DNA of 58,701 bases from Reclinomonas americana ATCC 50394 (GCA_048213135.1 PS015072.1:17141-75841); one strand, 5' to 3'. Positions 5,201 through 57,400 are shown, numbered from the stretch's first letter. A program made the numbers and translations. Notes: generated by a model from the sequence alone, not told the origin.

Positions 5201-8200
5201 CCGATGTACAGGATGGAGCCATCGCTGCGCATCGCAGCTCCGCTGGAGTAATCCACCAATACCGCTGCACTGCCACTACCGCTTGGTGGAGAGATGCAAG
5301 TGCTTGTCGATGTGCCCGCAAACGTTGTCACAGTGGCAGATGCCACAGACACCCGTCGTACTGCACAGTAGCTTCCAGACGTCCCGCTGACAACGAAGAG
5401 ATCACCAGTGGGTGGGTGAACTGCAAGGCCAGCAATGTTTTTGAAGGAGGCACTCGCTCCCACGCCATCAGCAGTTCCTGCCGTTGTACTGCCAACAAAA
5501 GTAGATGCAACACCGGCAGATGTCACTCGCAAAATGCCTCTGTGAAGGCTGTTTGCCATGTACAGATTGCCAGAGGCATCGGTCACGAGTCCTGCTGAAG
5601 TCCCCGGCGTAACGCTTGTCGCAAACGTGCTCACCACTGGTTCACCGACCTCAAACCACACGCTTGTCGTGGAGGCTGCATCGTTCGCATTGACAGTTCC
5701 GTTCACAGTGGTGGTTGATGTCGAGATGCCGACTGCCGCAGCGGTGGCCACCGACGGCAGTGTTTGCGTGTAAAACGTTTCGATAGCGCCATTCTGTGCC
5801 GCAGACACGCCAGTGATTCGAATCACCACACGGAATCCGTAAGTTGTCATGCCCGTGAGGCCAGTCACAGCGCAACTCAGTGGAATACTGTTTGCGCCAG
5901 TGTACGGACCAGCTGGACTCAGAGATGTGCAAGTATGCACACCAGAAGCCAGTGTCACATCTGTTGAGTACTCGAACACAACACTGTCAAGCGGGACCGT
6001 GTTGGGATTCAGTGAGGCGCGAAGAGTGACAGTGCTCAGTTGCACATTGGTCGCAGAGAGTGTGCTCCAAGTCGGCATTGTCAGCGTGGTGAATGACACT
6101 GGTGTGCTGTTGACGGTGCCCGCTGCAGTGACGAGAACCACCTGAAACCAATACTGTGTCGAAGGACTGAGACCGGTGGCGGTGCCAGACACAGCAATGG
6201 CGGAAGTTCCCATGTACGGAGCAGCTGGGGTCACCGTAGTGATAGTCGTCACACCCGTCACAAGTGTAGGGTCTGTGGAGGAAAACTGAAAAGTCAACGA
6301 AGTAACACTGTCTCCGCTCGGCGGCAACACAGCCGCGTTGAGAACCGCAGACACAGGGCTGATGCTTGACGACGTCACACTTACAGTATTTGCCGTCAAG
6401 GTGCTTCCCAGAAGCGGTGGCGCGAGCTCTGAGGAAGTGAGGCGTGCTCGAAAGTACCACCTGGTGCTACCATTGAGTCCAGTCACTGTCGCCGACACCG
6501 TGATGTTGCTCGTACCAGTCTGCGTTCCAGCCGGCGTGACTGTGGACCACAACTGAACGCCGGTACTGAAGCTGCTGTCCGTCGAGTAATCAAAGGCCAC
6601 TGTTACCGCTGCGCTCCCGTTGGGGTTCATGGTCACAGCAACTGTCACCGACGACGATGTGCTGGACGTAATGCCTGTTGACGCGATCATCGGGAGTGCA
6701 GCCGTCGTCGCATTGGCCACTGAGCTGGTCACGGACTGACTGGTGTCACTCGCCGGTACTGCCGTGCAGCGGAAGTAGTAGGTGGTGTTGGACGTCAATC
6801 CCGAGGCTGTGGCAGAGACAGTGGTGCCTGCAGCTGCAGAGGTGACGGAGCTGGAAGCGGTAAACGTCTGCAAGACGGGTGACATATTGGAAGCCGTCGA
6901 GAGTGCAACAGTGACTGCACAGGCGCCGCCGTTGTTGGTGGTGATTGGGCATCTCAGCAAGAGCGTGAAAGATGTCTTTGTGGCAGTCGGCGTTACCAGC
7001 GTTGGCAGGTTGAGAGTGGTGGCAAGCTGTGCTGAACCACGAGTCGCAGTGGCTCCATTGTTGTTGGTCGCCGCTGCCTGGAACACGAAGGTGGTCGATG
7101 GCGACAGACTGGAGATAGTGGCGGAAACGGACACTGGCGCGGTGCCCGTCAAGTTGGCCGGCGACGCACTTGCCACTGAAAACGTAGTCGGATACGAGAT
7201 CCGACGGAGGCCTGTGAGATGCGAGTTGAATGAGAATGCAACACATTGCAGCAAGGAGAAGAAAAATTGCTGCAGCTACCTTTGTCGTCAGCCACCAGCA
7301 GCGAGTTGGATTGGCTGTTGAACACGATGCCACTTGTGTTGTTCATGGAGAAGCGTGCAACGCTACCCGCGCCATCAGTGTTGCCACTGCCTGAATCACA
7401 ACGTCCAGCGTATGCCGTCACGCTGCCAGAGGGCGTCACTCGGCGGATGCAGTCGTTGCCAGCATCCACCAAAAACATGTTGCCGCTGGCGTCCACAGCC
7501 AGACCACCAAGTGTCGTCGAGAACGACGACGCTGCAGTGCCCACTCCATCTGCTCTGCCAGAGTAGTTGCCTCCCGCTATGGCCGACAGAGTCGCCGTGC
7601 TGAGAACGATTTTCGACACACCCGGGGCACTCGTAGTCATGAAGGCTTCTTGACCGGTCGATCCAATGACGATACCGTAGCATGACACGCTGGAAGTGAC
7701 AGTCGAAACAGTGGCAGTTGTCGTCTGAACAGCACGTATCCTACTTGAATCGCAAGCGTACAATGTAGAGCCGTCGGTGGTGATGGCAAGTCCATAGAGG
7801 GCAGAGCTGAACCGAGCAGCGGATCCAACGCCGTTCGTCGAACCTGGTGATCCTGCGACTCCTGCGTATGTCGTCACGACACCGCCAGCCGTCACCTGTG
7901 AAAGTGCAGTGATAACTTGAATTAACCTCCCATCAGCAAGCGGGTCGCGAGGAATACACGCAACTCGTCGAATGGTTTGGTTTCCCCTGTCAGCCACAAA
8001 ATAGTCACCAGAAGGCGAGTGAACTGCGATGCCAACTGGACTATTGAACCGGGCGGCGGAACCAGTGCCGTCTGTTGCTCCTGAGGAACCGCTCGTTCCA
8101 GCGACGAGTGACAACACGCCAGTGGTGCTGATACGACGCACAACATGCACGTTTGTGGATGTCATGACGAGATTCCCGGCGGCATCATAGGTCATATGTC

Positions 8201-11332: not shown

Positions 11333-12406
11333 CTTGCAAGTCGTGTGCATCTTTATCACGTTGATCATGGTGTGGGCGGTGGTCAGTCAGACTGTGCTCT
11401 GCGAGGCCGGCCTGTGCATTGCCGCGTGTGGACGCTTTGTGTGTGTGCAACTGATGGCGGGAGCGCATTTGGTGCTGGCGGCGGCTGCACGTTTCCCGCG
11501 CATTATCAATCTCAGTGATGGATCCAAGGCGTGGAGTCTGCCGTTTACGATTCCGTTGTTGTTGGTGCAGACGGCATGTTGAGTACTGGGGAAGAGAAGG
11601 ATGCATCTGATTGACGCGACAGCGGAGAGCTCTGTTGTCTTTGGAGAGGAAGGGAATGAGGACGAGGTGAACGCAGTGCGTCTGCGAGTGCTTCGATAGA
11701 GCGGCAGCATGTACAGTGTGAGAACAGAGAGTGAGAGAGGAGCGACATGTCTGCCTGACTCTCAGCGAGAAGGTGGGGTTTTTGTATTCGGAGAGAGGCA
11801 GTAGAGTCTGAGAGATTTTCGAGGGGAGCACGTGTACTCTTCTTCGTCGATTGCAGCTGTTGTCTGTGCGTAGGATGGGAACTAGAGCGAGAGTGAGTTT
11901 GGTGAACGGAGAGATGAGGCGGTGTCCTGGAGTGCATGAGCGCTCACGAGTCCTCTCGTTTACCTCTCTCTTCCTCCTCACAGCATTCGGTGTAAGCACG
12001 TGCTACTCGCCTCGTGATTTATCAGGCTCTGTTGTCTCTCTCTTTTCTTCTGCCATTCTCTCCCTCGCTCTTTCTCTCTCTCTCTCTCTTCTCTGAAGAA
12101 CAGCACATTACAGTTGATCCAGTGGAAAGGTTATTGAGAGAAGCACGCTGGATGTGGCCTCCCTGAGTCCTGCTTTTCGCTCAGCGGATTATGAGACACG
12201 CAGCAGTTGTCATCTTCGTGATATGTGGTGTTGCCCTTCCCTTCTATCCCTTCCCCTTATCCTCACCCTCCCTTCCCCCTCCCCACGCAGTCGCCGTGGT
12301 CTACTACGTCTACATGTTCCGCGCGGTGGAGCAAATGGCCCACCCGCGCCACTACGGCCGCGTGGCTGGACTCGGCATGCGCTCTGGCATGCGCACTGTG
12401 CCATGA
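11333..12406 (+). CDS. TMEM138: TMEM138-like ciliary membrane protein (5'-incomplete; exons 11333-11577, 12291-12406)
   Basis: The spliced product LQVVCIFITLIMVWAVVSQTVLCEAGL...LLLVQTAFAVVYYVYMFRAVEQMAHPRHY is colinear with recalled TMEM138 ([27 protein letters not shown]...[26 protein letters not shown]). Confidence 0.65.
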
Positions 12407-12636: not shown

Positions 12637-15600
12637 CTACTTGTCTCGCGACAACGCGGCAATCTCACTCTCGAACCTCTTCACCGCATTCTCCTGCAGC
12701 ATCTTGTCGGTCACCAGCGTCTCGGCAACTTCACGGCCCCTCTCCAGCATGCGCCGCGCCTTGTCTACGGTCGCCGACTGCTTGGCCAGTGCGCGTGCCC
12801 ACTGCGTCGTGTTGTCCAGCAGCGTCATCAGCAGCACGGGATTCTGCGCGAGTTTCTCGCGATGCTCGCCAATGACACTCTCGGCGCCGCCCAGCACTTG
12901 CACCTCCTTTGCCTCGGAGAACTCGAGCTGCTCGCGCAGCATCTGATCCACCTCGGTGAAGAGCTCCAGCGCGGCGGGCACATCGCCATCCAGCGCACAC
13001 AGCTGACCGAATTGCGTCATGAGACCCGCGTACTCGCTGAGGGGAACTGTGCGCGCGAGTGAGCGAACGGGAAGGGTGTATATCACGCACACACGAATGT
13101 ACGCACCCTTGGGTTCACCAGCGTCATCTCGCCACAAGTCGCGTGTTTTTCTCAACCACGCTCGCGCCTCGGCGTACCGCTTGGCACGCACACAGAACTG
13201 CACATAGGTGCCCGTGGCGGCCACAAAGTCCTCGTGCAGTTGTCCCACACTGCCGGACAGGAGGTCCAGGCTGCGGTGATTTGTCAGGAAGTGTTGCACC
13301 AACAATCCCCACCATTCTCCACCGCTCTTGTGTCTCCTCTTTCACTTCTTGCATCTTCTCCTCTCCCTCTCATTCTTTCACCCACCTTCTCTCAATTCTC
13401 TCTCTTCTTGTCTTATACTCCCCTTCGCCCTCTCCCCTCCACTCCCCCCCTCCCCACTCACCACTCCGTCAAGCATCTGCCCGTTTCATCGTTCTTTGCC
13501 GGATCCTCGGCGGTGACCACCGCCAGCGTCATCAGGCACTGCGCACGTGTGTGGCGGTAGGCCGTGTCGGATTCGCGCATGTATGGATTGTCGGCCAGCG
13601 ACAGCGCCGCGCGCAAGCCCTCAAACGCCAGATCCTCGTCGCCGCAGCGGTAGTGGAACATAGAGAGCACGTGGATGGCGTGGATTTCGCGATGGAGCCA
13701 TTCGCGCACCGTCTTGCTCTTCTCCGTCGACGACTTGTTCGACATGCTGGAGGAGCCGGTGGAAGACGAGGGCGACGACGGCGGCGACGAGCTGTCACCT
13801 TGCTCGTGCTGCACGTCAAACATACGCGTGCTGGTGGGCAGTCCGGTGGCACTGGATGCCGTCGAGTCCATCTCCGTGGCGCGTGTTCTCTGCTGCTGCA
13901 GCATGGCCACCACGCGCTGCTGTGTTGTCAGAGCGTCCTTGTGTTGCCCGAGGCGGTCCAGCACTTGCGCGAGGGTCTGAATGACCGAGGCATACATCCA
14001 ATGCTCGCGATTGATGATGCCTGCCGTAAGAGTAAGCCAACAGCACGCAAGTGAGAGGAGGGAGACAAAGCTACGCAACATTGGCCACTCTCGATAATCT
14101 CAATAAGCTCCTGCAACGAGTCCATCAGGCGCATCGTGGTGTCCGAATCGTCCTGCAGGCGCACGGTCTCCGCCAGCATCGTCACCTTTTTGTACAGGCA
14201 GGCGACGTACTCCACATCGTGCCTGCGCGCTGTGTGAGTCATCGACGGCAGAGTCGATGGATACGAGACATCCACACAACTTATCCTGGAACGAATTTCG
14301 TGCCTCCTCCAGGGTCTCGGCGGCACGAATCAAGTCGCCCTCGCGCTCCTGAATCATGACGAGGGAGCTGAGGAGAGACAATTCGTCGAGGCCGAGCTGG
14401 TCGACAACTGCGCGCAGGATGGTTAGAGAGGGGAAAGGCGGAGGAAATCGATCACCAGCACATGCGCAACTGTGTTGCACAGCGGCGTATCGTTCTGCGT
14501 GTCGCTCACCCTCCGTCTGCACACACACATAATGTCAGTCGCAATGCCGGAGAAAGTACAAAACCACATGAGATTGACAAGCCTTCATGGCGGTGAGCAA
14601 GTCACGAATGAATTGCTGTGCCACCAGCGGGTCGCCGTGATGAGCCAGTGCCGAGACACGATTCGCCGTGGCACGCAGTCTCTCCTGGTGCGTGGCGTGC
14701 AAGCGCTCCAACGAGGTCGTGTACGCCTCCTCCGACACCTTCAGCAAGCGTTCACGCAGCTGCTGTTGCTGCTCCTCGGGCTACGCCGCACGCGCCAGTG
14801 AGGCGGTGGTTGTGAGGGAAGCGAAGAAGGAACAGGCGACAAACCAAGTCGGCCGAGAGCTGCGCAAACATCAGGCGCACTGTCCCATTCAAGCACAGCA
14901 CGTACTCCTCGTTGTACTTGCCGATTTGTCTGTCGACAGCAGCAGTCAGGTGATCACAAGATGAAATACTGCAGAAGGTTTCTCATTCTTCTCAATATAC
15001 GCAACCTCTCCAGAATCGACAGAGCCAGTGCAAACTTCTCCTCGGCCCGTGCATAATGCCCACCACGCATGCACGCAGTGGCGTGATTTTGCAGCGAACG
15101 AGCATACTGCAATCGTGCCAGTGAGACACAGCGGAAACCACGAGCAGCAACCCACGACAAACCTCGGTGCTCGTCGGCCCCCACAACTCCTTGATGACAT
15201 CCGCGCACTGCTCCGTCACCTCCTCCGCCTTGTCGTACTTCTCGGTGGCCATGTACATGGCCGCCATGTTGGAGAGCACCACAATGCGGTGTGCATCCTT
15301 GCCGTGCAACACATCTCTGCGACAGGCATTGGCAGGAAAAGTTAGCCCCCTCGAGTCACTCACTCTCCCCCTCTCTCACAAGCACCACTCACTTGTGCAT
15401 CGAGTCGGCTTTCAAAAAGTGCCGCTCGGCGGCCTCGTTCTCACCGCGGACCATGTAGATCATGGCCATGGTGGTGAACACAATGGCCCGCTCCTGTCCC
15501 ACCGCCTCCTCCTTCTCGTTGCTCTTGAGAATACGCTTGGCCTTCTTGCACATCTCCAGCAGATCGGCCAGCGTCTGCGACACGGCGGCGTCGCTGGCGG

Positions 15601-16007
15601 CCACCGAGTCGGCCCGACTGGCCACCGGCATGAGCGAGATCTCGGTCGTGTGCAACCGCGACGACGCCATGTACGCCAGACAGCTGGCCACCTGCTCACA
15701 CTCGCTACCATACAACGTGTCAAAGATCGACAGCGCCTCCATCAGCTGCTCCACGGCCTTGCGGTGCTGGCTCAGTGCGTGCAGCGCGCGGCCGTAGTGG
15801 TAGTACAGAGTGGCACTGGCGGGGAAGAAGATGAGGGGCAGAGATGTAGTGAAAAGTGCAGCGGAGCCCGCAACTTGTCGTCGTTGCGCTCAATCGGGCC
15901 CATCTCGGCGGTCACCGACAACGAGTCCTGCAGGTAGCGCACGGCGCCGACGTAGTTGCTGCGGTACTCGCACAGCCATGCCAAGCGTGTGAACAGCCAG
16001 CGTTGGA
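12637..16007 (-). CDS. Multi-exon TPR-repeat protein (KLC/NPHP3-like TPR type), 5'-incomplete
   Basis: TPR-like segments include ATLYYHYGRALHALSQHRKAVEQLMEALSI, VVLSNMAAMYMATEKYDKAEE and LAQVLDRLGQHKDALTTQQRVV. It has several short GT-AG introns and a TAG stop at 12637-12639. Confidence 0.7.
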
Positions 16008-16404: not shown

Positions 16405-16446
<42 letters not shown>

Positions 16447-16795: not shown

Positions 16796-18571
16796 GCGTG
16801 CTGAAGAACCGCGAGACGTACATCCTCGCCGCCAACTACCTGCAGTCGATGAACTGGCATCAGGATCCCGAAATCATGCAGAACATTATCAACTTTTATC
16901 AAAAGGCCAAGGCCTACAACTACCTCGCCAACTTTTACAATTCGTGCTCAGAGATTGAGGTGCGGAGTGGCGGTGAAGTGGATTTGTGCAGAGTGTGAGA
17001 ACTGACTTGCGTGTGTGGCGCTGCAGATTGACGACTATCAAGTGCGTGGCGCGTTGCTTATTTGGATTCTCATGTGTTTGTGCTCACCCTCAGTTTTGCT
17101 CTTGTACGTGCGCAGGATTACGAGAAAGTTGCGTTTATTTCGGTGACTTGAAAGGTTGCCACAAATCTCACTGTCTGTGTGTTGCAGGCTCTTGGAGCAT
17201 TGAAGGAGAGTGCCAAGTATCTCGCCAAGTCGCGCGAGGGTGACAAGACCGATCGTGTGCAGCAGCTGCAGGTGCGTCCGTGTTTGGTGACAGGGGAGTG
17301 GATGCTGCAGTCTTCCAGCTTGATTTTGAAGTGCAAGAGAGTGAGAGAGAGAGAGAGAGAGAATTCTTGACAAGCTCTGCATCTCGTTTGTGTACCCTCT
17401 TTCGTTCATTGTTTGTTGGCCAACGCGACTGTGTGTGTCTGTATGTCTGTGTTTCTCGCTTCATACATCTGTCTCTCAACTGCACGTACTCTCCTTCTCT
17501 CTCTCTTCGCTTACATTCTCTCTCACATACACACCTATGCTCTCCCTTCACCTGTCAGTCTGCCGCGACACCTATCTCACACACGCGCGCTCTCTCTCTC
17601 TCTCTCTCGCTTACTTTCTCGCTGTTTTTCATGCGCACTTGTGTTCTCTCCCTTCACCTGACAGTCTTCAGCGACACCTGCCGCACCTTTCTCTCACACA
17701 GACGCACACTTGCCCACGCATACTCACTCGCTTGCTCTCTCCTCCACCTATCAGTTTACCGCGACACCTGCCTCGCCCGTTCTCTCTCTCTCTCACAAAC
17801 AATGCAACATGCACACTTTCTTGCTGGTTCCTCTCAGACACACACAGACATGTGTTCTCTCCCTTCATCTGCCAGTCGTCCGCGACACCTACTCTGCCCG
17901 TTCTCTCTCTCACTCACTCACAAACAATGCGACATGCACACTTTCTTGCTTGTTCCTCTCAGACACACACAGACCTGTGCTCTCTCCCTTCATCTGTCAG
18001 TCGTCCGCGACACCTGTATTGCCCTTTCTTTCGCTCTCTCTTTCTCCCTCTCACGCACACATACTCTTCACCTGTCGTTCCCCCGACACCTCTCTCTTTC
18101 CCTCTTTCCCTCTCTCTTTCTCCCTCTCTTCTCCTCGCTCACCCCCTCCGTGTCGCTTCGCAGCATCGCATCGTGCTCGTGGAGCGCTTCGTCGAGGCCA
18201 GACGATTCGCCCAGACCGACACCGAGCAAATGCTGGCTGTGTGCCGTGAGCTGCTGGACGAGCCCGACATTGAGAGCGCTGTGCGCCTCGGCGACATCTT
18301 TGCCGAGATGCTCAACTACTACTACAACATGCAGAACTGGGAGATTTGCCATCAGATTCTCGAAAAGATGAAGCAGCGTCGCGTGCAGATCCCGTACTAT
18401 GTGTCTGCGCCTGGTGAGTTGTTGCTGTTGTTGTTGTTGTTGCCTGACGCGCATGTGTTTTTCCCCTCGCTCACTTTTTTCTCGCCAGTTCGCAACAAGA
18501 TCTACAAGGAAATGGGTCTGGAGGCGGCGGCAGACGACACGGGCGTGGAGGAGGAGCTGGAGGACTACTGA
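16796..18571 (+). CDS. IFT140: Intraflagellar transport protein 140, C-terminal part (exons 16796-16959, 17027-17041, 17116-17127, 17188-17271, 18164-18413, 18489-18571)
   Basis: YILAANYLQSMNWHQDPEIMQNIINFYQKAKA...IEIDDYQDYEKALGALKE...AVRLGDIF matches the conserved IFT140 C-terminal TPR region. Confidence 0.92.
17480..18100. repeat. Degenerate intronic tandem repeat in IFT140 (core TCTCCCTTCA[C/T]CTG[T/C]CAGTC..CGCGACACCT)
   Basis: About 6 degenerate copies spaced roughly 90-130 bp apart (near 17541, 17647, 17857, 17982). Confidence 0.7.
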
Positions 18572-19439
18572 GTGGTTTCTCGCACGTGCTTGTGGAACGA
18601 GAAGGAACGAGAATGTAGCGGCAGCGGATGCACGAGGCAATTGGGTGTGGGATAAATGCTTGTCGCGCAGAGGACAGGTAACTGGCACAAGTTCTGCGCT
18701 GGCGGTTGTTGGTGTCGTGAAAAGCTTGCATTTGCGAGCGACAACCACTCGCTAATCCAAACAGCAACACAGCTGCATGATGATCACCATCTTGAGTGAG
18801 CACCAGAAACTCAGACATCACGGGTAAAAGCGAGAAAAAGTCGAGATGGCTAATGCTGGCGTTTCTGCAAAAGAAACCACGGCTCATGATAAGCATGGAT
18901 TTGACACCGAATTCCTCAAAGGAACGCAGAAAGATAGCAAGAGGTGTTGGTATCAGAAGACATATGGAAACCAACAAAGCAGGTACAGTCGAGCGGTTGT
19001 CGCTGCTGGTAGTGTCTCTCACGGGAATTGTCATTGATATCTGTTGATGCTGGCAACGAGACCATATATCGGAACCAAATCTGTTCGAATACGCCTGCAA
19101 CCACCCGCTGACCAAGCCGCCACAAAGTTTAGCGACCAACACGCAACGCCAGCTTCGATAGATTCCGCGCTCCACATGGTGACTGTGGATCTGCGCATTC
19201 GAATTCTAATTATAATTCATTTCGAATTCGATATTGTTGTGCTGTTATTTGGCTCATTCTCGTAATTTTCGACAAGGAACGGGCGAGTAACCTCCCTACT
19301 GCAGCTTCTACAATATGAAAACACCGCCGTACGCACAAACCCCCTTGTTTTTGAAACACATCAATCCGTCCATCCACTCGGACGGTGGAAAACCGTTGTG
19401 TCACGTGCGTGTGAGTGTGGGCGGGAAAAACGATCAACG

Positions 19440-19737
19440 ATGGCTGAGGAAGTCGACGCGAATGAGGCGCTTCTCAAGTCCATGAACACACCTCTCGTGG
19501 CAGTTGCGTTGATCACACTTTCGCAGCCTCTCACACACACAGAGACAGAGAGAAAGAGTGATTTCGTGGCCGTTTACTCTGAGCAAACTGAATGATCGCG
19601 CGCGCACTCTCTTTCTCTCTCTCACTGTGTGTGTCTGTTGTTAACAGGAGTCTGACATGCCTGAGGACATGAGAATCGACGCAGTGGAAATCGTCACCAC
19701 GGCCATTGATAAGTTCTCGTCAGCAAATGATTTTGAG
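19440..19737 (+). CDS. DNAL4: Axonemal dynein light chain 4 / LC10 (LC8 family), 3'-incomplete (exons 19440-19502, 19648-19737)
   Basis: MAEEVDANEALLKSMNTPLVA|ESDMPEDMRIDAVEIVTTAIDKFSSANDFE resembles DNAL4 PLVRHSDMPEEMRVETMELCVTACEKFS. The rest of the gene lies in the gap. Confidence 0.8.
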
Positions 19738-19755: not shown

Positions 19756-19790
<35 letters not shown>

Positions 19791-20601: not shown

Positions 20602-21447
20602 ATTCAAGTGTCGAGCAAGGCCGGTGCGAAGCTGCTGCAGATGTGGCACAAGAAGGAGGTGCGAGGCGCGTGGTGCGAGGCCAAGCAGGCCGAGGTGAGT
20701 TTTTGTCTGCCATGTGTGCGAAACCGGACGCTCATGTATGTGTGTGTGTGTACTAGATGACTGTGTGGGCCACGCGCAACTGGATCACGTCGTCCACTGT
20801 GCAAGTTCTGCTTGTAATTCTCTCCTCGTTTGCTTTCGATGCATCTCACCGCGACCATTGCACAGCAAGTGCCGGTAGCTGCCGTACCGCAGTACACGCC
20901 TCCGCCGCAGTATTACCCCCAGTATGCCGTTCCGTTGCGTCCATAATTCGCTCCCCATCACTGCATCGTTGCATCGCATCTGACCCTTTCTTTTCGTTGG
21001 ATGCAGGATGTACGGGTGCGCCACCTGTCTCCTTCCCTTCGCCCTCTCCCTCATACTCACCCTCGATGCAGTGCCGCCCCCGTGGCTGCCGTCGCCGGTG
21101 CTGGGGGCTACTACGCTCCTCCACCAGGTGCCGTCAGTGCCGCACCTATGGTGGCCGCTCCTGCGCCTCAGCCACCGCCACCGCCACCGCAACCGCAAGT
21201 GGCCTACTTCAACCCCGACGCCGACTCCACGGTGATCTACGCGCCAGTCTCCGCCGCCTCAGGCAGCGGAAGCACCTACGCCACCTCCACCACTGCCACC
21301 TCGGCATCCGCGAGCCCGTACCCCGTCGCTCCACCCCCATACAACCCCGCGTCCGCTTCCGCCGCCGCCCCCCCTGCACCAAACAGCAGCTATTCGCACC
21401 CGGTGAACGAGACCGTCAAGGATGATTTCCTCGCGCACAGCAAGTGA
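20602..21447 (+). CDS. 3' part of a hypothetical protein with a Pro/Tyr/Ala-rich tail
   Basis: Five in-frame GT-AG exons (20602-20694, about 20757-20804, about 20866-20933, 21007-21015, 21072-21447) ending DDFLAHSK*. Confidence 0.6.
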
Positions 21448-25385: not shown

Positions 25386-25401
25386 TACACACGAATGAAC
25401 A

Positions 25402-38594: not shown

Positions 38595-39818
38595 TCAGCG
38601 TTGCTTCTTCTTCCTTGAGGTGCCACTGCTGCTGGCACCACCACCACGTGGGCTGGGACCGCTGCCACTCGATTTTTGCGCGGCACGAATGGCGGCATTG
38701 GCGGCGCGGTCCGTGTCGACCACTGGCCGCTTGGCGAGCATGCGATCGAGTACCTTCATCGTACGCATCTTCTCGCCGGCGCCTGCTGTGGTGGTGGCGT
38801 GGCGCTTGTTGCGCTCCGACTCCTTGGGCTTGGCCGAGGCGCCGGCCACGCGGAGGCGACTCGGTGTGCCCGCTTGCACCGGATCGAACTTGCCCATCGA
38901 GGCCGTCGAGTAGCGCGCCTTGCCGAATGCATCGAGCACCGTGGCCTTCTTCGGGTGCGACTGCGAGGCAATGGCCAGCGACGACGGCAGACCGAGCTTC
39001 TTGCGATTGGTTCGCTCGCGCTTGTTCTGCTTCATGGTGCGCGCCCGTTTCTCGCCCTTCATGGCCGTGCGCGGGTCCACGCCGTCCATGCCCTGTCCCT
39101 CCTTCAACTCCACCAGCCACGGCTCGTCGGTGAGGTCGCTGCCGACACGCTTGTAGCCGTAGCGTCGTCGGAACTCGCCCGCCTGCTCGTCCCACACCAG
39201 CTTGGAGCGATCGGTCTTGCGGATCCGGTTCTCCAGCGCGTACTGCTTCCACTTGGTCAGCTGCGTGGCGGCCTTCGGGATGGGCTTCTCACGCGGGAGG
39301 CGTAATACGGCGGCGGAGAGGTCGGGCAGCAGTGCCAGCTTGCCAAGTGATCCATCCGGTGTCTTCTCCGTCGGCAGCGCAAACACCTTGCCGACCAGCT
39401 GCTGTGTCACCTCTTCTGCGGCGGCACGTAATGAGGCCTCCCTGTGATGCACCGTGTGTAAGGCAATGCAGGAGAAAGACGGGGAAGGGAGAGAGGGGGA
39501 GGAGGGACGCAACGTGTTGAAGCGCGACTTGTCGAAACCCGGATCCGACGCCATCAGGTACGTCAGGTCGTAGTTGATCTCGGTGGGGCGCGAGCTGTCG
39601 CGTGCCAACGCTGTCAACAGTGCCAGAGAGGCGTCCACGGCTCCATCGCCAGACGGTCTGTGTGGTGTGCGCTGGAGAGTGAGGAGGCGGCCATGTGCAC
39701 ATTCACATGCACAAGAAAGGACACCACACAAAGAAGAACAGGAGTTTCTGCGCGCGGATGCGGCAGTGGGGAGGATAAGGGGAGAGACGCACGTAGTGTG
39801 CTGCTCATCGACCTCCAT
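38595..39818 (-). CDS. RRS1: Ribosome biogenesis regulatory protein RRS1
   Basis: Motifs YDLTYLMASD, TQQLVGKVFALP, LPREKPIPK, TKWKQYALENRIRK, LVWDE, RRYGYKR and STASMGKFD. Confidence 0.93.
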   Translation of the reverse strand: MEVDEQHTTCVSPLILPTAASARRNSCSSLCGVLSCACECAHGRLLTLQRTPHRPSGDGAVDASLALLTALARDSSRPTEINYDLTYLMASDPGFDKSRFNTLRPSSPSLPSPSFSCIALHTVHHREASLRAAAEEVTQQLVGKVFALPTEKTPDGSLGKLALLPDLSAAVLRLPREKPIPKAATQLTKWKQYALENRIRKTDRSKLVWDEQAGEFRRRYGYKRVGSDLTDEPWLVELKEGQGMDGVDPRTAMKGEKRARTMKQNKRERTNRKKLGLPSSLAIASQSHPKKATVLDAFGKARYSTASMGKFDPVQAGTPSRLRVAGASAKPKESERNKRHATTTAGAGEKMRTMKVLDRMLAKRPVVDTDRAANAAIRAAQKSSGSGPSPRGGGASSSGTSRKKKQR

Positions 39819-39992: not shown

Positions 39993-42900
39993 ATGGCTGA
40001 CGCGGAGCCGATCAAGATTCGTGAGGTTGCCAAGGTTTGTGTGCAAACTTTGTTTGCGGTGTGACGCCATGACCATTTCGTTCCGCGCACTCACTCGCTG
40101 CACCACCTCCACCCCCCACATTGCGCTTGCATTTTCTTGTTTGTGTTTGTNNNNNNNNNNNNNNNNNNNNNNNNNNNNNNNNNNNNNNNNNNNNNNNNNN
40201 NNNNNNNNNNNNNNNNNNNNNNNNNNNNNNNNNNNNNNNNNNNNNNNNNNNNNNNNNNNNNNNNNNNNNNNNNNNNNNNNNNNNNNNNNNNNNNNNNNNN
40301 NNNNNNNNNNNNNNNNNNNNNNNNNNNNNNNNNNNNNNNNNNNNNNNNNNNNNNNNNNNNNNNNNNNNNNNNNNNNNNNNNNNNNNNNNNNNNNNNNNNN
40401 NNNNNNNNNNNNNNNNNNNNNNNNNNNNNNNNNNNNNNNNNNNNNNNNNNNNNNNNNNNNNNNNNNNNNNNNNNNNNNNNNNNNNNNNNNNNNNNNNNNN
40501 NNNNNNNNNNNNNNNNNNNNNNNNNNNNNNNNNNNNNNNNNNNNNNNNNNNNNNNNNNNNNNNNNNNNNNNNNNNNNNNNNNNNNNNNNNNNNNNNNNNN
40601 NNGTTGTGTGACGACTGCAGCTGGTGCAACTGGGCGTCAATGCGCAGTTCATCAACTTCAACTTCCTCTCACTGGAGAGTGAGAAGTTTGTGTGTGTCAA
40701 GGAGCAGTTCCAGGGCCAGCCAAACAACCAAGTGCGTGAGAGAGGCCGAGGGCGGAGTGCGAAGGAGAGAGTGGAGAGACTTACACTTTTGTGTCTCTGC
40801 AGTACTACATTGTGGACTTGACCACCAACAAGGTGGACAAGAACTCGATGAAGGCCGACGCTGCGTTGAACCACCCGACTGCCCGTGTCGTCGCTCTGCG
40901 AGGTGAGCTTTGTTCTGTGCCGCTAGGGGAGAGAGAGAGAGAGCATGTGTTGGGACATAGTTGAGCATTTGCATCACTTGTGTGTTGTGTGATGATGCAT
41001 GCAACGTGTCGATTTTATTTTGCGCTCTCCGCGCTCGCGCTCCCCTCCTCGCACACGCACTTTGCACCACCGTACACGCATGCAGAAATAGTACCGAGTG
41101 AGAGCGAGTGAGAGTGTTTGTGTGTGTGTGTCTGCACGTGCCGGGTCAGACATGATGGCGCGCACACACACACACTTACCGTCTGCTGTGCACGGGGTGA
41201 ATGTGCGTGTGTGCGAGGGCGTTGTGACAGCGTGGTCGGCGACTTTTTGTGTNNNNNNNNNNNNNNNNNNNNATTACGCAACGCGCGGCGAGATCGACAC
41301 GAGGCGGATGGCCTGGTCAATGTTGCCCGACGACAGGATCTGGTCAAACTTGCGCTGGTACAGCTCCTCAGCGCCAGGGAGGCCGGCGCGCGAGGCAAAC
41401 GCAAACGCCAACTCCATGTTGCCGAGCTTGTTCATCAGGAAGGGCACAAAAGTGTCCTCGTCGACCGACACGGTCAACACCTGGCCGCCGCGGTTCACAC
41501 CAATAAAGCCCTCCGTCGAGGTCGGTGCCGTGATGAAGATCGGGTCGGGCAGGCGCTTGCCGAACAGCATGGTGCCAGTGTGCACGTCGTACAGGGTCAG
41601 GGTGCCCGTGCGGGTGAGCAGGTACACAATGCCGAAGCGGTTGGAGCCCTGCATCGAGACCGGGAAGTCGCCCGCCTGGAAGGTGATGGGGATGGTCTTC
41701 TTCTCGAACATGTTGTTGCCCATGTTCAAGTCGCGGATAAAGAGCTGCGCGCCGCCGCATGCAACGTGTGAGGAGACAAGCCAGTTGGCAAGACGACGAC
41801 GACTCTCTCTTGACATGAACGTACCGTGCCACCCTCTGGCTTGGCAACGGCAATCGCCACCAAGTTGGCGGTGTAGTCGGTGCCGGGCATCTTGTACTGG
41901 ATGAAGCAGGCAGTGTGGCCCTCAATGTGCTGCGACGCACCCTTCTCGGCCGAGTACAGCTGCAGGTGACCCTTCATGGTGCCGTCAGCCTGCGCNNNNN
42001 NNNNNNNNNNNNNNNNNNNNNNNNNNNNNNNNNNNNNNNNNNNNNNNNNNNNNNNNNNNNNNNNNNNNNNNNNNNNNNNNNNNNNNNNNNNNNNNNNNNN
42101 NNNNNNNNNNNNNNNNNNNNNGTGATAGAGTGGGGGTGGGGGAGGTAGGAGAGAGAGAGAGAGAGAGTGAGTGAGTTTGTGTGTGTGTGTTTGGATCTTC
42201 ACTTTGATGATGATGTGTATGTGTGTTCATGGCTGACAAATTATTTGTTGTGGTAAACAGGGCTTCCTCCGCAACCAGACGACCATTGAGCGCTTCAAGC
42301 AGCTGCCGATGGCGCCGGGTGGCAAGCCGCCAGTGCTGCAGTACTTCCGCTCTCTGCTGGAGACCGACAAGCTCAACCCGTACGAGTCGTACGAGCTGGC
42401 TCTGATGGCCCTGCAGCGCCCGAACGGTGCTGTCTACCTCAAGAGCCTGCTCGACGAGAACAAGATTGAGGGCTCGGAGCAGCTCGGTGACTTGGTGCGC
42501 CAGTACGACCGCGAGCTCGCCCTCAAGTTGTACGCACGCGGCAACGCCGGCTCCAAGGTCCGTTGTTTTTTTTGTGTGTTGCGCTTTTCTTTTCCTTCCC
42601 TTCCAGTCGCTGATTTGGTTTCTTGTTCAGGTGGTGGAGGCTCTGATTGAGACCCGCCAGTGGGAGAACGTGTTCAAGTACGTCGACTCGACCGACTACA
42701 AGCCCGACTGGATCTCGATCCTGCAGTCGCTGCTGCGCCCCGACCGCCTCGACCCGGAGGGTGCCGAGAAGCTGGCAACCATGCTGGCCCAGCGCAGCCT
42801 GGTGGACCCGAACCGCGTGGCCGACCTCTTTGTGCAAGTCGGCCTCTTCCAGCAGGTCACCTCGTTCCTCATTGACGTGCTCAAGGAGGACAAGCCGGAG

Positions 42901-45900
42901 CAGGCCGCGCTGCAGACGCGCCTCCTCGAGATCACCCTCGCCTCGTGCCCCGCGCACATCACCGAGGGCATCTTCGCCAACAACCTCATCTCGCACTACG
43001 ACAAGCAAAAGATTGCGCAGCTGTGCGAGCGCAAGCAGCTGTTTGCCCGTGCCCTCGAGAACTACGAGGACATTGAGGACATCAAGCGTGTGATCATCCA
43101 CGCCACGGCGCTGCTGGAGCCCACTGTTGCGTCTTGTCGAAGAAACAAAAACACCCCGAGTGCTCGTAGCTGACTTGGTACCCCGTTACAGTGGCTGATT
43201 CAGTACTTTGGCAACCTGGACGTGGACGACTGCCTCGTCGTCTTCCAGGAGCTGCTGAAGCGCAACCTGCGCCAGAACCTGCAGCTGGTGGTCGCCGCCG
43301 CCAAGCAGTACGCCACACACATTGGCACCGAGCGCCTGATCAACCTGTTTGACACGTTCAAGACCCCGGAGGGCATGTTCCACTTCCTGCGCGGCATTGT
43401 CGCCATTAGCGAGGACCCGGAGGTGCACTTCCGCTACATTGAGGCCGCCGTGAAGGTGGGCCAGATGTCGGAGGTCGAGCGCATGACGCACGATTCGGAC
43501 AAGTACGACCCGGAGCGCACCAAGGAGTTCCTGAAGGAGGCTCGCCTCTCCAACATGTGGCCGCTGATCAACGTGTGCGACAAGCACGGCTTCATCCAGG
43601 AGCTGGTCGAGTACCTGTACAACAATGGCCAACTGAAGTACGTTGACGCCTACGTGCAGCAGCGCTCGCCGCACAACACCCCCAAGGTGGTCGGCACGCT
43701 GCTCGACGTGGACTGCAACGAGGACCACATTGTCAAGCTGCTGGAGCAGGTGGGCCCGCTGGCCCCGATTGCCGAGCTGTGCGACGAGGTCGAGAAGCGC
43801 AACCGCCTCAAGCTGTGCCTGCCATGGCTGGAGGCCCGCTATCAGGAGGGCGTGCAGGAGGTGGCGCTGCACAATGCGCTCGCCAAGGTGTACCTGGACA
43901 CCAACAAGGATGCCCAGCGTTTCCTGGAGACCAACCCGGTGAGTTTTGGGGTGGAAAAGGGTAATCCCTCTTTGTGTATATTTGTAACTCATTTCTTCCT
44001 CTTCTCTCTTTCCCTCCTACAGTACTNNNNNNNNNNNNNNNNNNNNNNNNNNNNNNNNNNNNNNNNNNNNNNNNNNNNNACGACAGCGTGGTGGTCGGCG
44101 AGTACTGCGAGAAGCGCGACCCGATGCTGGCCTACATTGCCTACAAGCGCGGCAAGTGCGACGACCAGCTGATTCGCCTGACCAACAAGAACTCGATGTA
44201 CCGCCAGCAGGCCAAGTACTTGGTCGAGCGCCAGGACCTCGAGCTGTGGAAGAAGGTGCTCGGCGAGGACAACTCGCACCGCCAGATGGTCGTCGACCAG
44301 GTCATCCAGTCGGCGCTGCCGGAGAGCCGCGACACGGAGGAGGTGTCGACCACGGTCAAGGCCTTCATGTACGCCAACCTGCCCAACCAGCTCATTGAGC
44401 TGCTGGAGAAGATTGTGCTGCATGGTGCCTCGGACTTCCGCAACAACCGCAACCTGCAGAACCTGCTCATCCTCACCGCCGTCAACGTTGCGTNNNNNNN
44501 NNNNNNNNNNNNNNNNNNNNNNNNNNNNNNNNNNNNNNNNNNNNNNNNNNNNNNNNNNNNNNNNNNNNNNNNNNNNNNNNNNNNNNNNNNNNNNNNNNNN
44601 NNNNNNNNNNNNNNNNNNNNNNNNNNNNNNNNNNNNNNNNNNNNNNNNNNNNNNNNNNNNNNNNNNNNNNNNNNNNNNNNNNNNNNNNNNNNNNNNNNNN
44701 NNNNNNNNNNNNNNNNNNNNNNNNNNNNNNNNNNNNNNNNNNNNNNNNNNNNNNNNNNNNNNNNNNNNNNNNNNNNNNNNNNNNNNNNNNNNNNNNNNNN
44801 NNNNNNNNNNNNNNNNNNNNNNNNNNNNNNNNNNNNNNNNNNNNNNNNNNNNNNNNNNNNNNNNNNNNNNNNNNNNNNNNNNNNNNNNNNNNNNNNNNNN
44901 NNNNNNNNNNNNNNNNNNNNNNNNNNNNNNNNNNNNNNNNNNNNNNNNNNNNNNNNNNNNNNNNNNNNNNNNNNNNNNNNNNNNNNNNNNNNNNNNNNNN
45001 NNNNNNNNNNNNNNNNNNNNNNNNNNNNNNNNNNNNNNNNNNNNNNNNNNNNNNNNNNNNNNNNNNNNNNNNNNNNNNNNNNNNNNNNNNNNNNNNNNNN
45101 NNNNNNNNNNNNNNNNNNNNNNNNNNNNNNNNNNNNNNNNNNNNNNNNNNNNNNNNNNNNNNNNNNNNNNNNNNNNNNNNNNNNNNNNNNNNNNNNNNNN
45201 NNNNNNNNNNNNNNNNNNNNNNNNNNNNNNNNNNNNNNNNNNNNNNNNNNNNNNNNNNNNNNNNNNNNNNNNNNNNNNNNNNNNNNNNNNNNNNNNNNNN
45301 NNNNNNNNNNNNNNNNNNNNNNNNNNNNNNNNNNNNNNNNNNNNNNNNNNNNNNNNNNNNNNNNNNNNNNNNNNNNNNNNNNNNNNNNNNNNNNNNNNNN
45401 NNNNNNNNNNNNNNNNNNACATGACGAAACGTTCTCTTTTACTTTTGAAGTGCTCATTCCCCCTTTCCCCCCTCCCACAGAGCGACCAAGCGCGCGTGAT
45501 GGGCTACGTGCAGCAGCTGGAGAACTACGACGGCGTGGAGGTGGCCAAGATCACTTTCGAAGCCGAGCTGTACGAGGAGTGCTTCTTTGTGTACAAGAAG
45601 CACAACATGCGCAAGGAGGCCATTGGCGTCCTGCTGCACCAGATCCGCGATGTGGTGCGCGCTCAGGAGTACGCCGACCGCGTGGACGACAAGGAGGTGT
45701 ACTCGCTGCTCGGCCGCGCTCAGGTCGACCACAACCTCATTCGCGAGGCCATTGGTGAGTGCACTGATGGAGGGAACGAGGGAGAGAGAGAGAGAGGATG
45801 AGTTGCTGACTCCCCTTTCTTTTGTGCAGCTTCGTACATGAAGGCCGACGATCCCAACGACTTTGCTGTCGTGATTGAGGGCGTTAACCGCGTGCAGGAC

Positions 45901-51752: not shown

Positions 51753-51789
51753 CTGCGCGAGAGGGAGAGGAGAGGGAGAAAGTGAGGGT

Positions 51790-52640: not shown

Positions 52641-52705
<65 letters not shown>

Positions 52706-52716
52706 TTCTACGCAAC

Positions 52717-52854: not shown

Positions 52855-52938
52855 CCTCCTCAGACACTACACAGTCCGTCAAGATCGACTTGTCCTCGCA
52901 GGTCGAAACGTCGCAAAGCGATCAATCAATCTCAGCGA

Positions 52939-53148: not shown

Positions 53149-54026
53149 GTTGCGTGAATGCATCTCTCCTCCTCATCCTCCTTGTCCTCCTCATCCTTTC
53201 TTCATCATCATCATCTTCTTCTTGTTCTTCTTCTTGTTCTTCTTCTTCTTGTTCTTCTTGTTCTTGTTCTTCTTGTTCTTCNNNNNNNNNNNNNNNNNNN
53301 NNNNNNNNNNNNNNNNNNNNNNNNNNNNNNNNNNNNNNNNNNNNNNNNNNNNNNNNNNNNNNNNNNNNNNNNNNNNNNNNNNNNNNNNNNNNNNNNNNNN
53401 NNNNNNNNNNNNNNNNNNNNNNNNNNNNNNNNNNNNNNNNNNNNNNNNNNNNNNNNNNNNNNNNNNNNNNNNNNNNNNNNNNNNNNNNNNNNNNNNNNNN
53501 NNNNNNNNNNNNNNNNNNNNNNNNNNNNNNNNNNNNNNNNNNNNNNNNNNNNNNNNNNNNNNNNNNNNNNNNNNNNNNNNNNNNNNNNNNNNNNNNNNNN
53601 NNNNNNNNNNNNNNNNNNNNNNNNNNNNNNNNNNNNNNNNNNNNNNNNNNNNNNNNNNNNNNNNNNNNNNNNNNNNNNNNNNNNNNNNNNNNNNNNNNNN
53701 NNNNNNNNNNNNNNNNNNNNNNNNNNNNNNNNNNNNNNNNNNNNNNNNNNNNNNNNNNNNNNNNNNNNNNNNNNNNNNNNNNNNNNNNNNNNNNNNNNNN
53801 NNNNNNNNNNNNNNNNNNNNNNNNNNNNNNNNNNNNNNNNNNNNNNNNNNNNNNNNNNNNNNNNNNNNNNNNNNNNNNNNNNNNNNNNNNNNNNNNNNNN
53901 NNNNNNNNNNNNNNNNNNNNNNNNNNNNNNNNNNNNNNNNNNNNNNNNNNNNNNNNNNNNNNNNNNNNNNNNNNNNNNNNNNNNNNNNNNNNNNNNNNNN
54001 NNNNNNNNNNNNNNNNNNNNNNNNNN

Positions 54027-54063
<37 letters not shown>

Positions 54064-54435: not shown

Positions 54436-57400
54436 GTGAAGAACAAGGCGCCGGCGCCGGTGCAGATTACAGCTGAGCAGCTGCTTCGTGAGGCTTATGA
54501 GCGGCAGGAGGCGCCGCCGAAGCCGCCGAAGCAGATGATTGTGGATGAGGCTGAGTTGATGGAGTATCGGTGAGTAGATGAGGGGGTGGGGAGAGAGGAG
54601 AAGGAGAGAGAGAGAGTTGTGCGTGCAGGTATCTCAAGGACAGGCTGAGAAAAGTTGCATTTCTTGAGGGGGAGGCAAGTTGTCTTTGTGAGCAGGTTGA
54701 TCAGGGTGCCCGTTGTTGCAGTGCGTTGCTGGGGGAGACTGTCTTTGTGAGCAGGCAGATCAGGGTGCTGGTTGTTGCAGTGCGTTGCTTGAGGAGACCA
54801 GCTGTCTTTGTGAGCAGGCAGATCAGAGTGCTGGTTGTTGCTCCAGCTGTCGCATCGTGATGAGTGCACTCTTTGGGGAGTGAGCCGATAGATCACTATG
54901 CTGGTCGTTCTTCGTGTGCGTATGGTATCAGCTGTCGCAGCGTGATGACATGCCTGTGAGGGCACAAAAAATAACCACGAGAGCGTTGGTATCAGCGCGG
55001 TTGGGAGGCAGATTGTCTCTGTACGCATCTCGCTGGTTGTCGTTCTGCGTGTGTGTTCGATCAGCTGTGATGCGTGCATTGTGGAGGGAGACGAGTTGTC
55101 TTTGTGAGCAGACAGATCAGGGTGCTTGTAGTTGCTCCAGCTGTCGCTGCGTGATGAATGCATTGTGGGGAGAGGCAAGTTGTCTCTGTCCGCAAACAGA
55201 TCTCGTTATTTGGTGTTCTCTTGTGTGTGTTTGATGTTGGCTGTCGCAGCGCCATGAGTGCGTTGTTGAGAGAGACATGTTGTGTTTGTGAGCAGACAGA
55301 CAGCGGTGGTTATTGTTGCAGCAGCGCTGTGATTGCATTCTTGGGGGATGAGCTAGCAGGTCACGGTGCTTGTCGCTCTTCGTGTGCATTTGGTGTGTGT
55401 TGTTAGGAGAGACAAAGTGTCTTTGTGAGCAGACAGACAGCGGTGGTTATTGTTGCTCCCGCTGCCGCAGCGTGACGAGTGAGTTCATTTTTGAGGCAAG
55501 GAGACACGTAACTGAGAGAGAGAGAGTGTGTGTGTGAGAGAGAGAGAAATCAGACTTCCTATGCATCTCTCGTTGTTCCCGTCCTGTTACTCACTCCTTC
55601 CTGTCTTCCCCGCAGCACCAACAAGCGCAAGGAGTTCGAGGACCGCCTGCGCATTCAGCGACACGACATCAACTACTGGGTCAAGTACGCCAAGTGGGAG
55701 GAGTCGCAGCGCGAGTTCGAGCGGTGAGTATCGCACGCCCCCTCTCTCGCGCGCGCGCTCTCTCTCTCTCTCTTTTATGTATTCACGGCGAGTTCCATGC
55801 AGTGCACGGTCAATCTATGAGCGCGCTGCCGACATGGACTACCGCCATGCCAATCTTTGGCTGCAGTACGCCCAGATGGAGATGAAGCATCGGTTCATCA
55901 ACCATGCGCGCAACGTCTGGGATCGCGCCGTCACGCTGCTACCCCGCGTGGACAAGGTTTGTCAAGCAATGTGCGACGTGCGAAGCGTGTGCCACGGCAC
56001 TGACTCGTGTGTGTGTGTGTGTGTGTGCTGTCGATGTAGTTTTGGTTCAAGTATGCGTACATGGAGGAGATGCTGGGCGACGTGCCGGCGGCACGACAGG
56101 TGTTTGAGCGATGGATGCAGTGGAAGCCGGAGGAGCCATCGTGGCAAGCGTACATCAAGATGGAGATGCGCTACAAGGAGATTGAGCGAGCGCGTGCCAT
56201 TTACCAGCGATGTTGAGTGTGGAAATTTATCGCACTCACGCGCACACTTTGTTGCTGACTCTCACATGCGTGCAGTCGCCGAGTGCCACACCAAAGTCCG
56301 CACCTTTATCAAGTGGGCCAAGTTCGAGGAGAAGCTGAACAACGTGGCCGGAGCGCGAGCGGTGTACGAGCTCGCTACCGACACTCTGGGCGAGGATGCG
56401 AGTGATGAGACGCTCTTTGTCTCGTTTGCCAAGTTTGAGGAACGGTGCGTTGGCCCTCTTCATAGCCTCCTCTTCCGCTTCGTCTCACCTGCGTTGTGGC
56501 AGGTGTCGAGAGATTGAGCGTGCACGCATGATTTACAAGTTCGCCCTCGACCACCTGCCAAAGGATCGCGCCACTGAGTTGTACAAGACGTACATGTCGT
56601 TCGAGAAGCAATACGGCGACCGTGAGGGCATTGAGGATGCGCTGGTGTCGAAGCGGAGACTGCAGTACGAGGAGGTGCGACGTGACGTGCAGCTGCTTCC
56701 TTCATTCCTGTTGCTGACACATGCAAGCAGGAGATTGCCAAGAATCCGATGAACTACGACACGTGGTTTGATTACATCCGACTGGAGGAGTCGGCAGGCA
56801 ACCAGGAGCGCCTGTTCGAGGTGTGCGAGCGAGCCATTGCCAACATTCCACCGGTGGCCGAGAAGAGGTACTGGAAGCGCTACATTTACTTGTGGATCTT
56901 GTTTGCGTTGAACGCGGAGTTGCTGGCACGAGTTGCGTACCTTCCTCCAACGCTGCCTGTCGTTTTTTTGCTGCACGCTGCTCACAATCTCACAGGACGC
57001 AGCAAAGACGCGCGACGTGTATCGCGAGTGCCTCAAGCTCATTCCGCACAAGCAGTTCACGTTCTCCAAGATATGGATTCTCTACGCCAAGTTCGAGTTG
57101 CGACAGCGCAATCTCGCCGAGGCGCGCAAGATCTACGGCAATGCTATCGGTCGCTGCCCCTCGGAGAAGGTGTTTTCGGCGTACATTGCGTTGGAGCAGA
57201 CGTTGGGAGAGGTGAGGGATGGATTTGGGGGAAGAGAATGGGGAAAGGGAGAGAGAGGAAGATGCTCATCGCTTTGCATTATAGATTGAGCGATGCCGCA
57301 CGCTGTTCAACAAGTTTTTGGAGTTCGATTCGGCCAACTGCAATGCGTGGGTTCAGTTTGCGGGACTCGAGACGGCGCTTGGTTAGTGCGGAGAAGGGAT

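Follow-up and report, generated by a model that had tools for sequence, protein, structure and literature searches.

The stretch of Reclinomonas americana DNA analysed here, called the window throughout, is 58,701 nucleotides (nt) long, 7,018 of its bases being N in 17 runs, and our subject is a class of introns in its genes whose 5' splice sites (donors) read mostly GTTGCG or GTTGAG. Positions are counted from the first letter of the window, a trailing plus or minus sign gives the strand, and a slash marks the exon/intron boundary. The evidence consists of the window sequence, proteins from a public collection and published papers, and the junctions are known from DNA and protein sequence alone. 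Exon-wise Pfam scans and homologue searches identified the following genes:

Minus strand: large FN3/NHL repeat protein, with donors including 7964- (Pfam and homologues).
Minus strand: TPR protein, lineage-specific and without homologue.
Plus strand: IFT140, C-terminus.
Plus strand: DNAL4-like dynein light chain.
Plus strand: TOP3A.
Minus strand, about 37.7 to 28.1 kb: WDR90/POC16 (homologues about 35% identical).
Minus strand: RRS1.
Both strands, in pieces: clathrin heavy chain.
Plus strand: zf-HIT protein.
Plus strand: CRNKL1.

For the clathrin heavy chain, the closest relative is a protein from a transcript-sized contig (P0001, 78% identity); the other homologues in the public collection searched are at most 58% identical, and therefore the collection holds no close annotated relative. 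Scanning metagenomes with a clathrin exon as query found no relative, and a full-library HMMER search with the TPR protein returned one spurious repeat match only (P0270). Junctions were scanned by taking all frame-preserving donor/acceptor pairs within +/-24 nt, with neither GT nor AG imposed, and scoring the resulting peptides against homologues by BLOSUM62.

A preliminary description of this DNA listed 20 donors of this kind, and GTTGCG or GTTGAG is indeed present at all 20 positions on the strand claimed. As that description also held, the last exon base (-1) is a base other than G in 19 of the 20, the sole exception being 15005-. Downstream of each motif comes a short stretch with a CTNAC-like motif and YAG at its end. 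The claim that these donors are required for in-frame splicing stands for most of them, but not for 7964- (69 nt) and 39513- (72 nt), where the intron is in frame and stop-free. Conserved proteins were said to fix the junctions, and they do so for clathrin, IFT140, CRNKL1 and RRS1, but not for TOP3A and DNAL4, which are placed by Pfam or gene model, nor for the zf-HIT donor, which is a candidate. Support is strong for seven donors and moderate for three, comes from Pfam or gene models for six (24906+, 19503+, 15005-, 14079-, 15874- and 7964-), and leaves four as candidates. Further members of the class lie beyond the original 20, namely 34530- (GTTGCGT) and 14280- and 36904- (both GTTGTGT). 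The seven strong donors, three in clathrin, two in CRNKL1 and one each in IFT140 and RRS1, are placed by homologues or by sequences of solved structures:

43126..43191, plus strand: clathrin intron, 66 nt, donor ACT/GTTGCGT, acceptor TTACAG (homology-only scan).
44487..45480, plus strand: clathrin intron containing a masked N run, donor AAC/GTTGCGT, acceptor CCCACAG (homologue collinearity).
41276..41282, minus strand: clathrin donor CGC/GTTGCGT, the remaining intron being lost in a 20-N gap (next exon at 42261, opposite strand).
56212..56275, plus strand: CRNKL1 intron, 64 nt, donor GAT/GTTGAGT (junction scan).
56932..56995, plus strand: CRNKL1 intron, 64 nt, donor CGA/GTTGCGT (junction scan).
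17128..17187, plus strand: IFT140 intron, 60 nt, donor AAA/GTTGCGT, after the 12-nt micro-exon DYEK (PDB IFT140 chains).
39442..39513, minus strand: RRS1 intron, 72 nt, in frame and stop-free, donor CAC/GTTGCGT (alignment spacing).

For the clathrin junction at 43126, no other GT-AG pair scores well: it reaches 729, against 745 for the top of any placement and 516 for the next GT-AG pair, and tblastn with P0001 spans this intron with a gap. At the 44487 intron, the matches to P0001 and to P0004/P0009 stop at ..LTAVN (44486) and restart at SDQARVM (45481) without the loss of a residue. At 41282, the exon ends at position 34 of the Clathrin_H_link profile and the exon at 42261 begins at position 35, the junction being collinear with residues 384/385 of P0009. 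The clathrin gene itself lies in four consecutive pieces on alternating strands, 40618-40907 (+), 41995-41283 (-), 42261-47002 (+) and 49008-48471 (-), which are separated by N runs that include 20-N gaps, and homologue residues ~85-170 are missing; this alternation suggests that contigs were placed in the wrong orientation during scaffolding, and not a biological arrangement.

In CRNKL1, scoring against 10 homologues ranks the model junction first among the GT-AG pairs in nine of nine introns. The junction at 56212 is the unique best among 460 frame-preserving placements (1197 versus 1138 for the next, with the same 10 homologues), and that at 56932 is tied for best with others (3 of 780 placements) and is the sole GT-AG pair among the ties. 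In IFT140, the upstream flanking exon aligns up to Chlamydomonas residue 1239 and the downstream one from residue 1249, and two consecutive plus-strand micro-exons, IDDYQ (15 nt, ~17027-17041) and DYEK (12 nt, ~17116-17127), supply exactly the nine residues missing between these flanks, with DYEK ending at the GTTGCGT donor. In RRS1, the exon downstream of the intron aligns from its first residue, to residue 57 of human RRS1 and residue 45 of the yeast protein, and the upstream exon has a single weak match, to residues 7-25 of Rrs1 5by8_B (E = 1.4). In our own comparison of the alignments, the distance to the N-terminal Rrs1 motif is out by 2 residues when the intron is removed and by 26 when it is kept.

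Against WDR90 homologues at about 35% identity, 27 of 30 modelled introns have their model junction as the top-scoring GT-AG pair, and the support for 36413-, 29013- and 34287- is moderate. The shifted introns of this gene are as follows:

36353..36413, minus strand: 61 nt, donor GCC/GTTGCGT (best GT-AG pair, 971 versus 926).
34463..34530, minus strand: 68 nt, donor ATC/GTTGCGT (best GT-AG pair, margin 74; frame-required).
34229..34287, minus strand: 59 nt, donor AAT/GTTGCGT (best GT-AG pair; frame-required).
28938..29013, minus strand: 76 nt, donor CAC/GTTGCGT (best GT-AG pair, 355 versus 347; frame-required).
36796..36904, minus strand: 109 nt, donor CGA/GTTGTGT (best GT-AG pair, margin 23).

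The exon upstream of the 36413 donor (36522-36414) raises the alignment score with eight of nine homologues, and the junction at 34287- is nearly tied (378 versus 375) with a rival GTGTGC donor at 34308. No YTNAY branch-like motif was found in the intron 36796..36904. Elsewhere in WDR90, a modelled 360-nt intron, 35131-34772 (-), holds a real WD40 exon (..TVRVWDLDTYDQ); the 61-nt intron that follows this exon has the donor CAG/GTTGGGG, and an internal GTTGCGT at 34917 is not a donor.

The donors placed by Pfam or by gene models, together with 14280-, define these introns:

24906..24969, plus strand: TOP3A intron, 64 nt, splitting a zinc ribbon, donor TCA/GTTGAGT (Pfam).
19503..19647, plus strand: DNAL4-like dynein light chain intron, 145 nt, donor GCA/GTTGCGT (Pfam, gene model).
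14930..15005, minus strand: TPR-gene intron, 76 nt, donor GAG/GTTGCGT, the only one with G at -1 (gene model, frame-required).
14021..14079, minus strand: TPR-gene intron, 59 nt, donor AAT/GTTGCGT (gene model, frame-required).
15816..15874, minus strand: TPR-gene intron, 59 nt, donor CAA/GTTGCGG, the only one without T+7 (gene model, frame-required).
14223..14280, minus strand: TPR-gene intron, 58 nt, donor TAA/GTTGTGT (gene model, frame-required).
7896..7964, minus strand: FN3/NHL gene, candidate intron, 69 nt, in frame and stop-free, donor CGA/GTTGCGT (gene finder).

At the TOP3A intron, the downstream exon matches positions 24-38 of Zn_ribbon_Top1 with its residues 1-15 (E = 0.01), and the upstream exon carries CPDC. 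The TOP3A C-terminus (24200-25400, plus strand) comprises several zinc-ribbon exons and a glycine/arginine-rich tail, and its exons are separated by 62-64-nt introns that a codon-based gene finder missed. Downstream of 19503, the exon matches the Dynein_light profile from position 6, and its alignments to light chains in the PDB begin at residue 12-13 or 32. Because the TPR gene has no usable homologue, its six T+3 donors are placed by gene models; 15874- was picked even by a gene finder without a donor motif. At the 7964- candidate, the NHL profile stops at the exon end, and splicing, which is optional for the frame, was chosen by the gene finder. In the same FN3/NHL gene, the in-frame stop at 4873-4875 (-) that separates two long open frames lies in a 60-nt GTGAGT..CAG intron, 4876-4817.

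Four of the 20 donors stay candidates, and a fifth candidate was noticed by eye:

11578..11584, plus strand: candidate donor CAT/GTTGAGT (weak upstream TMEM138 match, E = 0.03).
20934..20940, plus strand: candidate donor TCC/GTTGCGT in a proline-rich gene (without homology).
52710..52716, minus strand: candidate donor CAA/GTTGCGT (from the sequence itself), its intron entering a masked stretch.
53149..53155, plus strand: candidate donor CGA/GTTGCGT after the zf-HIT exon, its intron entering a masked stretch.
19141..19147, minus strand: candidate donor GGC/GTTGCGT after an ATG-led open frame and before a 53-nt intron-like stretch ending in TTGCAG.

For 11578+, neither an acceptor nor a downstream exon found support, and at 20934+ the gene finder favoured the donor 20695 for the same acceptor. 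[quoted passage not shown] The stretch that separates IFT140 from the dynein light chain may hold an unannotated small gene, 19205-18471 (-), which would include the 19147- candidate. Introns, and the surroundings of several masked stretches, contain long microsatellites of (GA)n-, (GT)n- and (CTT)n-like sequence, for example at 17340-17380, 19760-19830, 52620-52700 and 53180-53280.

Counted on both strands, GTTGCGT occurs 20 times, as opposed to 11.5 +/- 3.1 in dinucleotide shuffles, of which 1 in 100 reaches 20, and GTTGCGV occurs 36 times where 38 are expected. This raw excess is modest, and placement at donors is stronger evidence than the count: proposed donors or exon ends account for 17 of the 20 GTTGCGT heptamers, compared with 1 of the 36 GTTGCGV. 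The other three heptamers are 4701-, in coding sequence; 34917-, within a 61-nt intron; and 19147-, the candidate mentioned above. The donor class itself is real.

To describe the class quantitatively, we used a table of 71 introns in which a donor reading GTTGNG was called shifted. The table was curated by hand, and the selection was not blind. The reason for curation was that the gene finder fused neighbouring genes, made models on antisense frames and overlooked exons, among them the 15-nt micro-exon of IFT140, the WDR90 exon 36522-36414 and the WD40 exon within 35131-34772. Tier H contains 26 introns fixed by homology or by solved-structure sequences, tier W contains 28 introns of WDR90 placed by low-identity homology, and tier M contains 17 introns placed by gene model only. 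Excluded from the table were, in WDR90, 38668-37719 (a model intron joining RRS1 to WDR90) and 33454-33227 and 30869-30206 (poor homology rank); in the TPR gene, 14578-14408, with the donor GTCAAT; in TOP3A, 23147, 24074, 24268, 24354 and 25088; the WD40 intron 27658, the clathrin intron 47002 and all introns of antisense or spurious models; and the candidate donors 11578+, 20934+, 52716- and 53149+, with which the class would amount to 23 of 75.

Shifted GTTGNG donors open 19 of the 71 introns (27%), ordinary donors 46 (65%) and GTT donors in the normal register 6 (8%). The shifted share is 12 of 54 (22%) in the homology-checked tiers H and W and 7 of 26 in tier H, values in line with the earlier estimate of roughly a fifth of introns. 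A gene finder given only GT..AG and codon usage already picked several shifted donors, and a two-component donor mixture begun from a random start separated xxA/GTTGCGT (weight 0.29-0.35) from xAG/GTG(A/C)GT. Ordinary donors have G+3 in 39 of 46, A, C, T and G at +4 in 21, 15, 9 and 1 respectively, G+5 in 43 of 46 and T+6 in 35 of 46. In the shifted class, T+3, G+4 and G+6 are present by definition, +5 is C in 15, A in 2 and T in 2, and T+7 is found in 18 of 19. The preliminary view of the motif as the local consensus with one extra T is thus borne out, the shifted bases matching ordinary G/GTG(A/C/T)GT displaced by one, and so is the contrast at the exon end, where G-1 precedes 40 of 46 ordinary donors as against 1 of 19 shifted ones (Fisher p = 4.5e-10; in tier H alone, 15 of 17 and 0 of 7, p = 1e-4). 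A is the commonest -1 base of the shifted class (8 of 18), as it is at -2 of ordinary donors. The normal-register GTT donors, five GTTTGT and one GTTAGT, have T+3 but keep G+5/T+6 in the normal register:

15162-, 14844-, 29181-, 37308- and 55957+: GTTTGT.
57382+: GTTAGT.

All six of these have G at -1, and the non-G at -1 is therefore tied to the one-base shift and not to T+3 itself.

In the homology-only scans of clathrin, CRNKL1 and WDR90, the protein-restoring junctions are GT..AG. YTNAY lies 8-40 nt before the YAG acceptor in 16 of 17 class introns, the motif being degenerate and the count made with no control set. Donors of U12-type introns are of the RTATCCTT type, and a U12 identity for the class was rejected, as the donors read GTTG(C/A/T)G. 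An origin as introners or transposon-derived introns was also rejected: 17 interiors are unrelated (local scores with a mean of 8.0 and a maximum of 17, versus 6.9 and 12 when shuffled), and because no sequence is shared beyond the donor, the class introns are not copies of a mobile element.

The motif, the junctions, the frequency of the class and its lost preference for G-1 are thus observed directly, whereas how these donors are read, in which register and by which small nuclear RNA (snRNA), we infer from these patterns. We lean, without great firmness, towards the view that the shifted class consists of genuine GT-AG introns read by the normal early machinery in a +1-shifted register. The introns are spliceosomal GT-AG introns of 58-145 nt with a branch-like YTNAY and a YAG acceptor, and their 5' splice site is the local consensus placed one base into the intron, H/GU-U-G(C>A,U)GU as opposed to G/GU-G(A/C/U)GU. 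U1, and later U6, would bind the UG(C)GU part alike in both classes. In the shifted class, the intronic G+1 would occupy the place of the exonic G-1, so that no G-1 would be needed, and U+2 would be left unpaired, facing the U1 base that normally pairs with G+1, while cleavage would stay in front of the GU. In the window, this class accounts for about a quarter of the introns and is found in housekeeping genes beside ordinary introns.

The suggestion that G+1 stands in for the exonic G-1, which was already made in the preliminary description, agrees with the loss of G-1 that it predicts (1/19 versus 40/46) but finds no such agreement in the energies of pairing with canonical U1. We folded donors, with any register allowed, against an 11-nt sequence that we take to be the canonical U1 5' end. 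The median duplex energies (kcal/mol) were -1.7 for the shifted class, -2.6 for random GT sites, -6.0 for the GTTTGT type and -7.6 for ordinary donors. The canonical core ACUUAC appears in the available portion of bioRxiv 10.1101/2022.06.08.495308.

Several results weigh against a +1-shifted reading by the normal machinery. The shifted class pairs with canonical U1 no better than random GT sites do, and in these foldings, made with a canonical end that may not be that of the organism, the shifted register is adopted by 2 of 18 class sites and the normal one by 2 of 18, the rest forming no meaningful helix. C occupies +5 in 15 of 19 shifted donors and the matching +4 in 15 of 46 ordinary ones (p = 0.0009), a preference that would not follow from simply displacing one and the same recognition mode. 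Depletion of G-1 below base composition is weak (p = 0.014), and the other 20 GTTG[ACT]GT sites also show G at -1 just once; what is robust is the loss of the usual G-1 preference, rather than a depletion. In addition, tiers W and M rely on a gene finder into whose donor model the shifted class had already entered, and an Rfam search of the 58,701-nt window gave no family match, and so no U1 or U6 gene.

Some of these points would be accommodated by a re-tuned or second snRNA, either a U1 whose 5' end is altered where it faces intron +3/+4 or a U1/U6 variant complementary to UGCGU. We consider this explanation unlikely. In its favour are the failure of canonical U1 to pair with the class any better than with random sites, the strong C+5 of the class (15/19) and the strong G+3 of ordinary donors (39/46). 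Among 16 variants of U1 positions 5-6, G and C separate the class best from random GT sites (-7.5 versus -5.6 kcal/mol) and place 11 of 18 class sites in the shifted register, a variant that would serve as a specific prediction for the U1 of this organism. There is also precedent, in that co-evolved U1 5' ends are described for Entamoeba (ACAAAC) and Mastigamoeba (ACGUAC) in the accessible text of bioRxiv 10.1101/2022.06.08.495308. However, the separation obtained with the model variant is small (1.9 kcal/mol) and was fitted to the same data on which it is judged, ordinary donors have A+4 more often than C+4 (21 versus 15), the Rfam search of the window gave no snRNA gene, and, in the same portion of that source, Thecamonas and Micromonas also favour C+4 with a standard U1. 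The corollary, that the same genes carry two 5' splice-site codes, G/GUGNGU and H/GUUGCGU, the latter read via a re-tuned or second U1 (or U6) complementary to UGCGU, is doubtful to the same degree; if true, it would make this a natural two-register, possibly two-snRNA, major spliceosome.

Somewhat less probable again is a bulged U, in which U1 would pair normally with G+1/U+2, U+2 or U+3 would loop out and pairing would resume at G+4. The motif reads as the local consensus plus one U, and the bulge +2/+3 register has been validated in human cells according to the available part of PMC4856993. A bulged helix, however, would be expected to depend on G-1 no less than ordinary donors do, whereas G-1 is found in 1/19 against 40/46, and in free folding G+1 is paired with its normal U1 partner at only 2 of 18 sites. 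Thus, of the marks of a bulge +2/+3 site, the extra U is present and the exon-side preference for G-1 is absent, the exon-side mark being one that we ourselves infer. On statistical grounds, the -1 pattern favours the +1-shifted register over the bulged U. Finally, it is very improbable that misplaced junctions or unspliced in-frame stretches have inflated the class into an artefact, as could be argued from the in-frame, stop-free introns at 7964- and 39513-, the four candidate donors, the near tie at 34287- and the GTTGCGT copies inside an intron (34917-) and in coding sequence (4701-), for scans blind to GT and AG arrive at the motif junction in both clathrin and CRNKL1, the spacing in IFT140 and RRS1 fits the spliced forms only, and most class introns are required for the frame.

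If the +1-shifted reading by the normal machinery is true, a mode of recognition that is rare in humans would be routine here. Interest in shifted and bulged registers has come chiefly from the trouble that they cause for splice-site prediction and for interpreting disease variants; the introns described here would allow the question of what really fixes the cleavage site (U1, U6, U5 or Prp8) to be put to a natural system, would show how far early recognition tolerates a displaced helix and would test the co-evolution of snRNA 5' ends with donor classes. In practice, a gene finder that has learned just one donor matrix will mis-model about 1 in 4 introns of this genome.

A literature search that left subscription journals mostly, and supplements wholly, outside its reach found no splicing paper with GTTGCGT or GUUGCGU as a donor, and in the literature on registers and U1 co-evolution no such donor class was found as a major fraction of introns. 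Both shifted and one-nucleotide-bulge registers have been shown experimentally in human cells, as described in the part of Tan et al. 2016 (PMC4856993) available to us. The human +1-shifted sites (Roca and Krainer 2009, as presented there) are alike in having the consensus one position further in, G+1 in place of G-1 and cleavage at the GU; they are rare and were proven by suppressor-U1 experiments, whereas the class described here makes up about a quarter of introns and is known from sequence alone. In GUUG(C)GU, only U+2 would be mismatched, whereas the 'Shifted +1' test oligo in Table 2 of PMC4856993 has two mismatches. The human bulge +2/+3 sites (Roca et al. 2012; PMC4856993, in the text accessible to us) are similar in adding one nucleotide to the consensus at +2/+3; they are few, with 68 sites predicted and 54 left after curation (Table 3 of PMC4856993), next to 51 predicted and 36 left for bulge +3, and the loss of G-1 preference seen here is not predicted by a bulge. 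Among other eukaryotes, the GYGCGY or C+4 donors of Mamiellales and Thecamonas, which go with a standard U1, resemble the ordinary G/GUG(A/C/U)GU class of R. americana, and a one-base-shifted second class is not mentioned for them in the available text of bioRxiv 10.1101/2022.06.08.495308. The same portion of that source shows that the 5' end of U1 can change along with the donors, as in Entamoeba (GUUUGUU) and Mastigamoeba (GUACGU); lineage-specific donors with U at +3 are a further point in common with the class described here. In those two lineages, however, there is one genome-wide consensus in the normal register, whereas in R. americana two registers would operate within the same genes.

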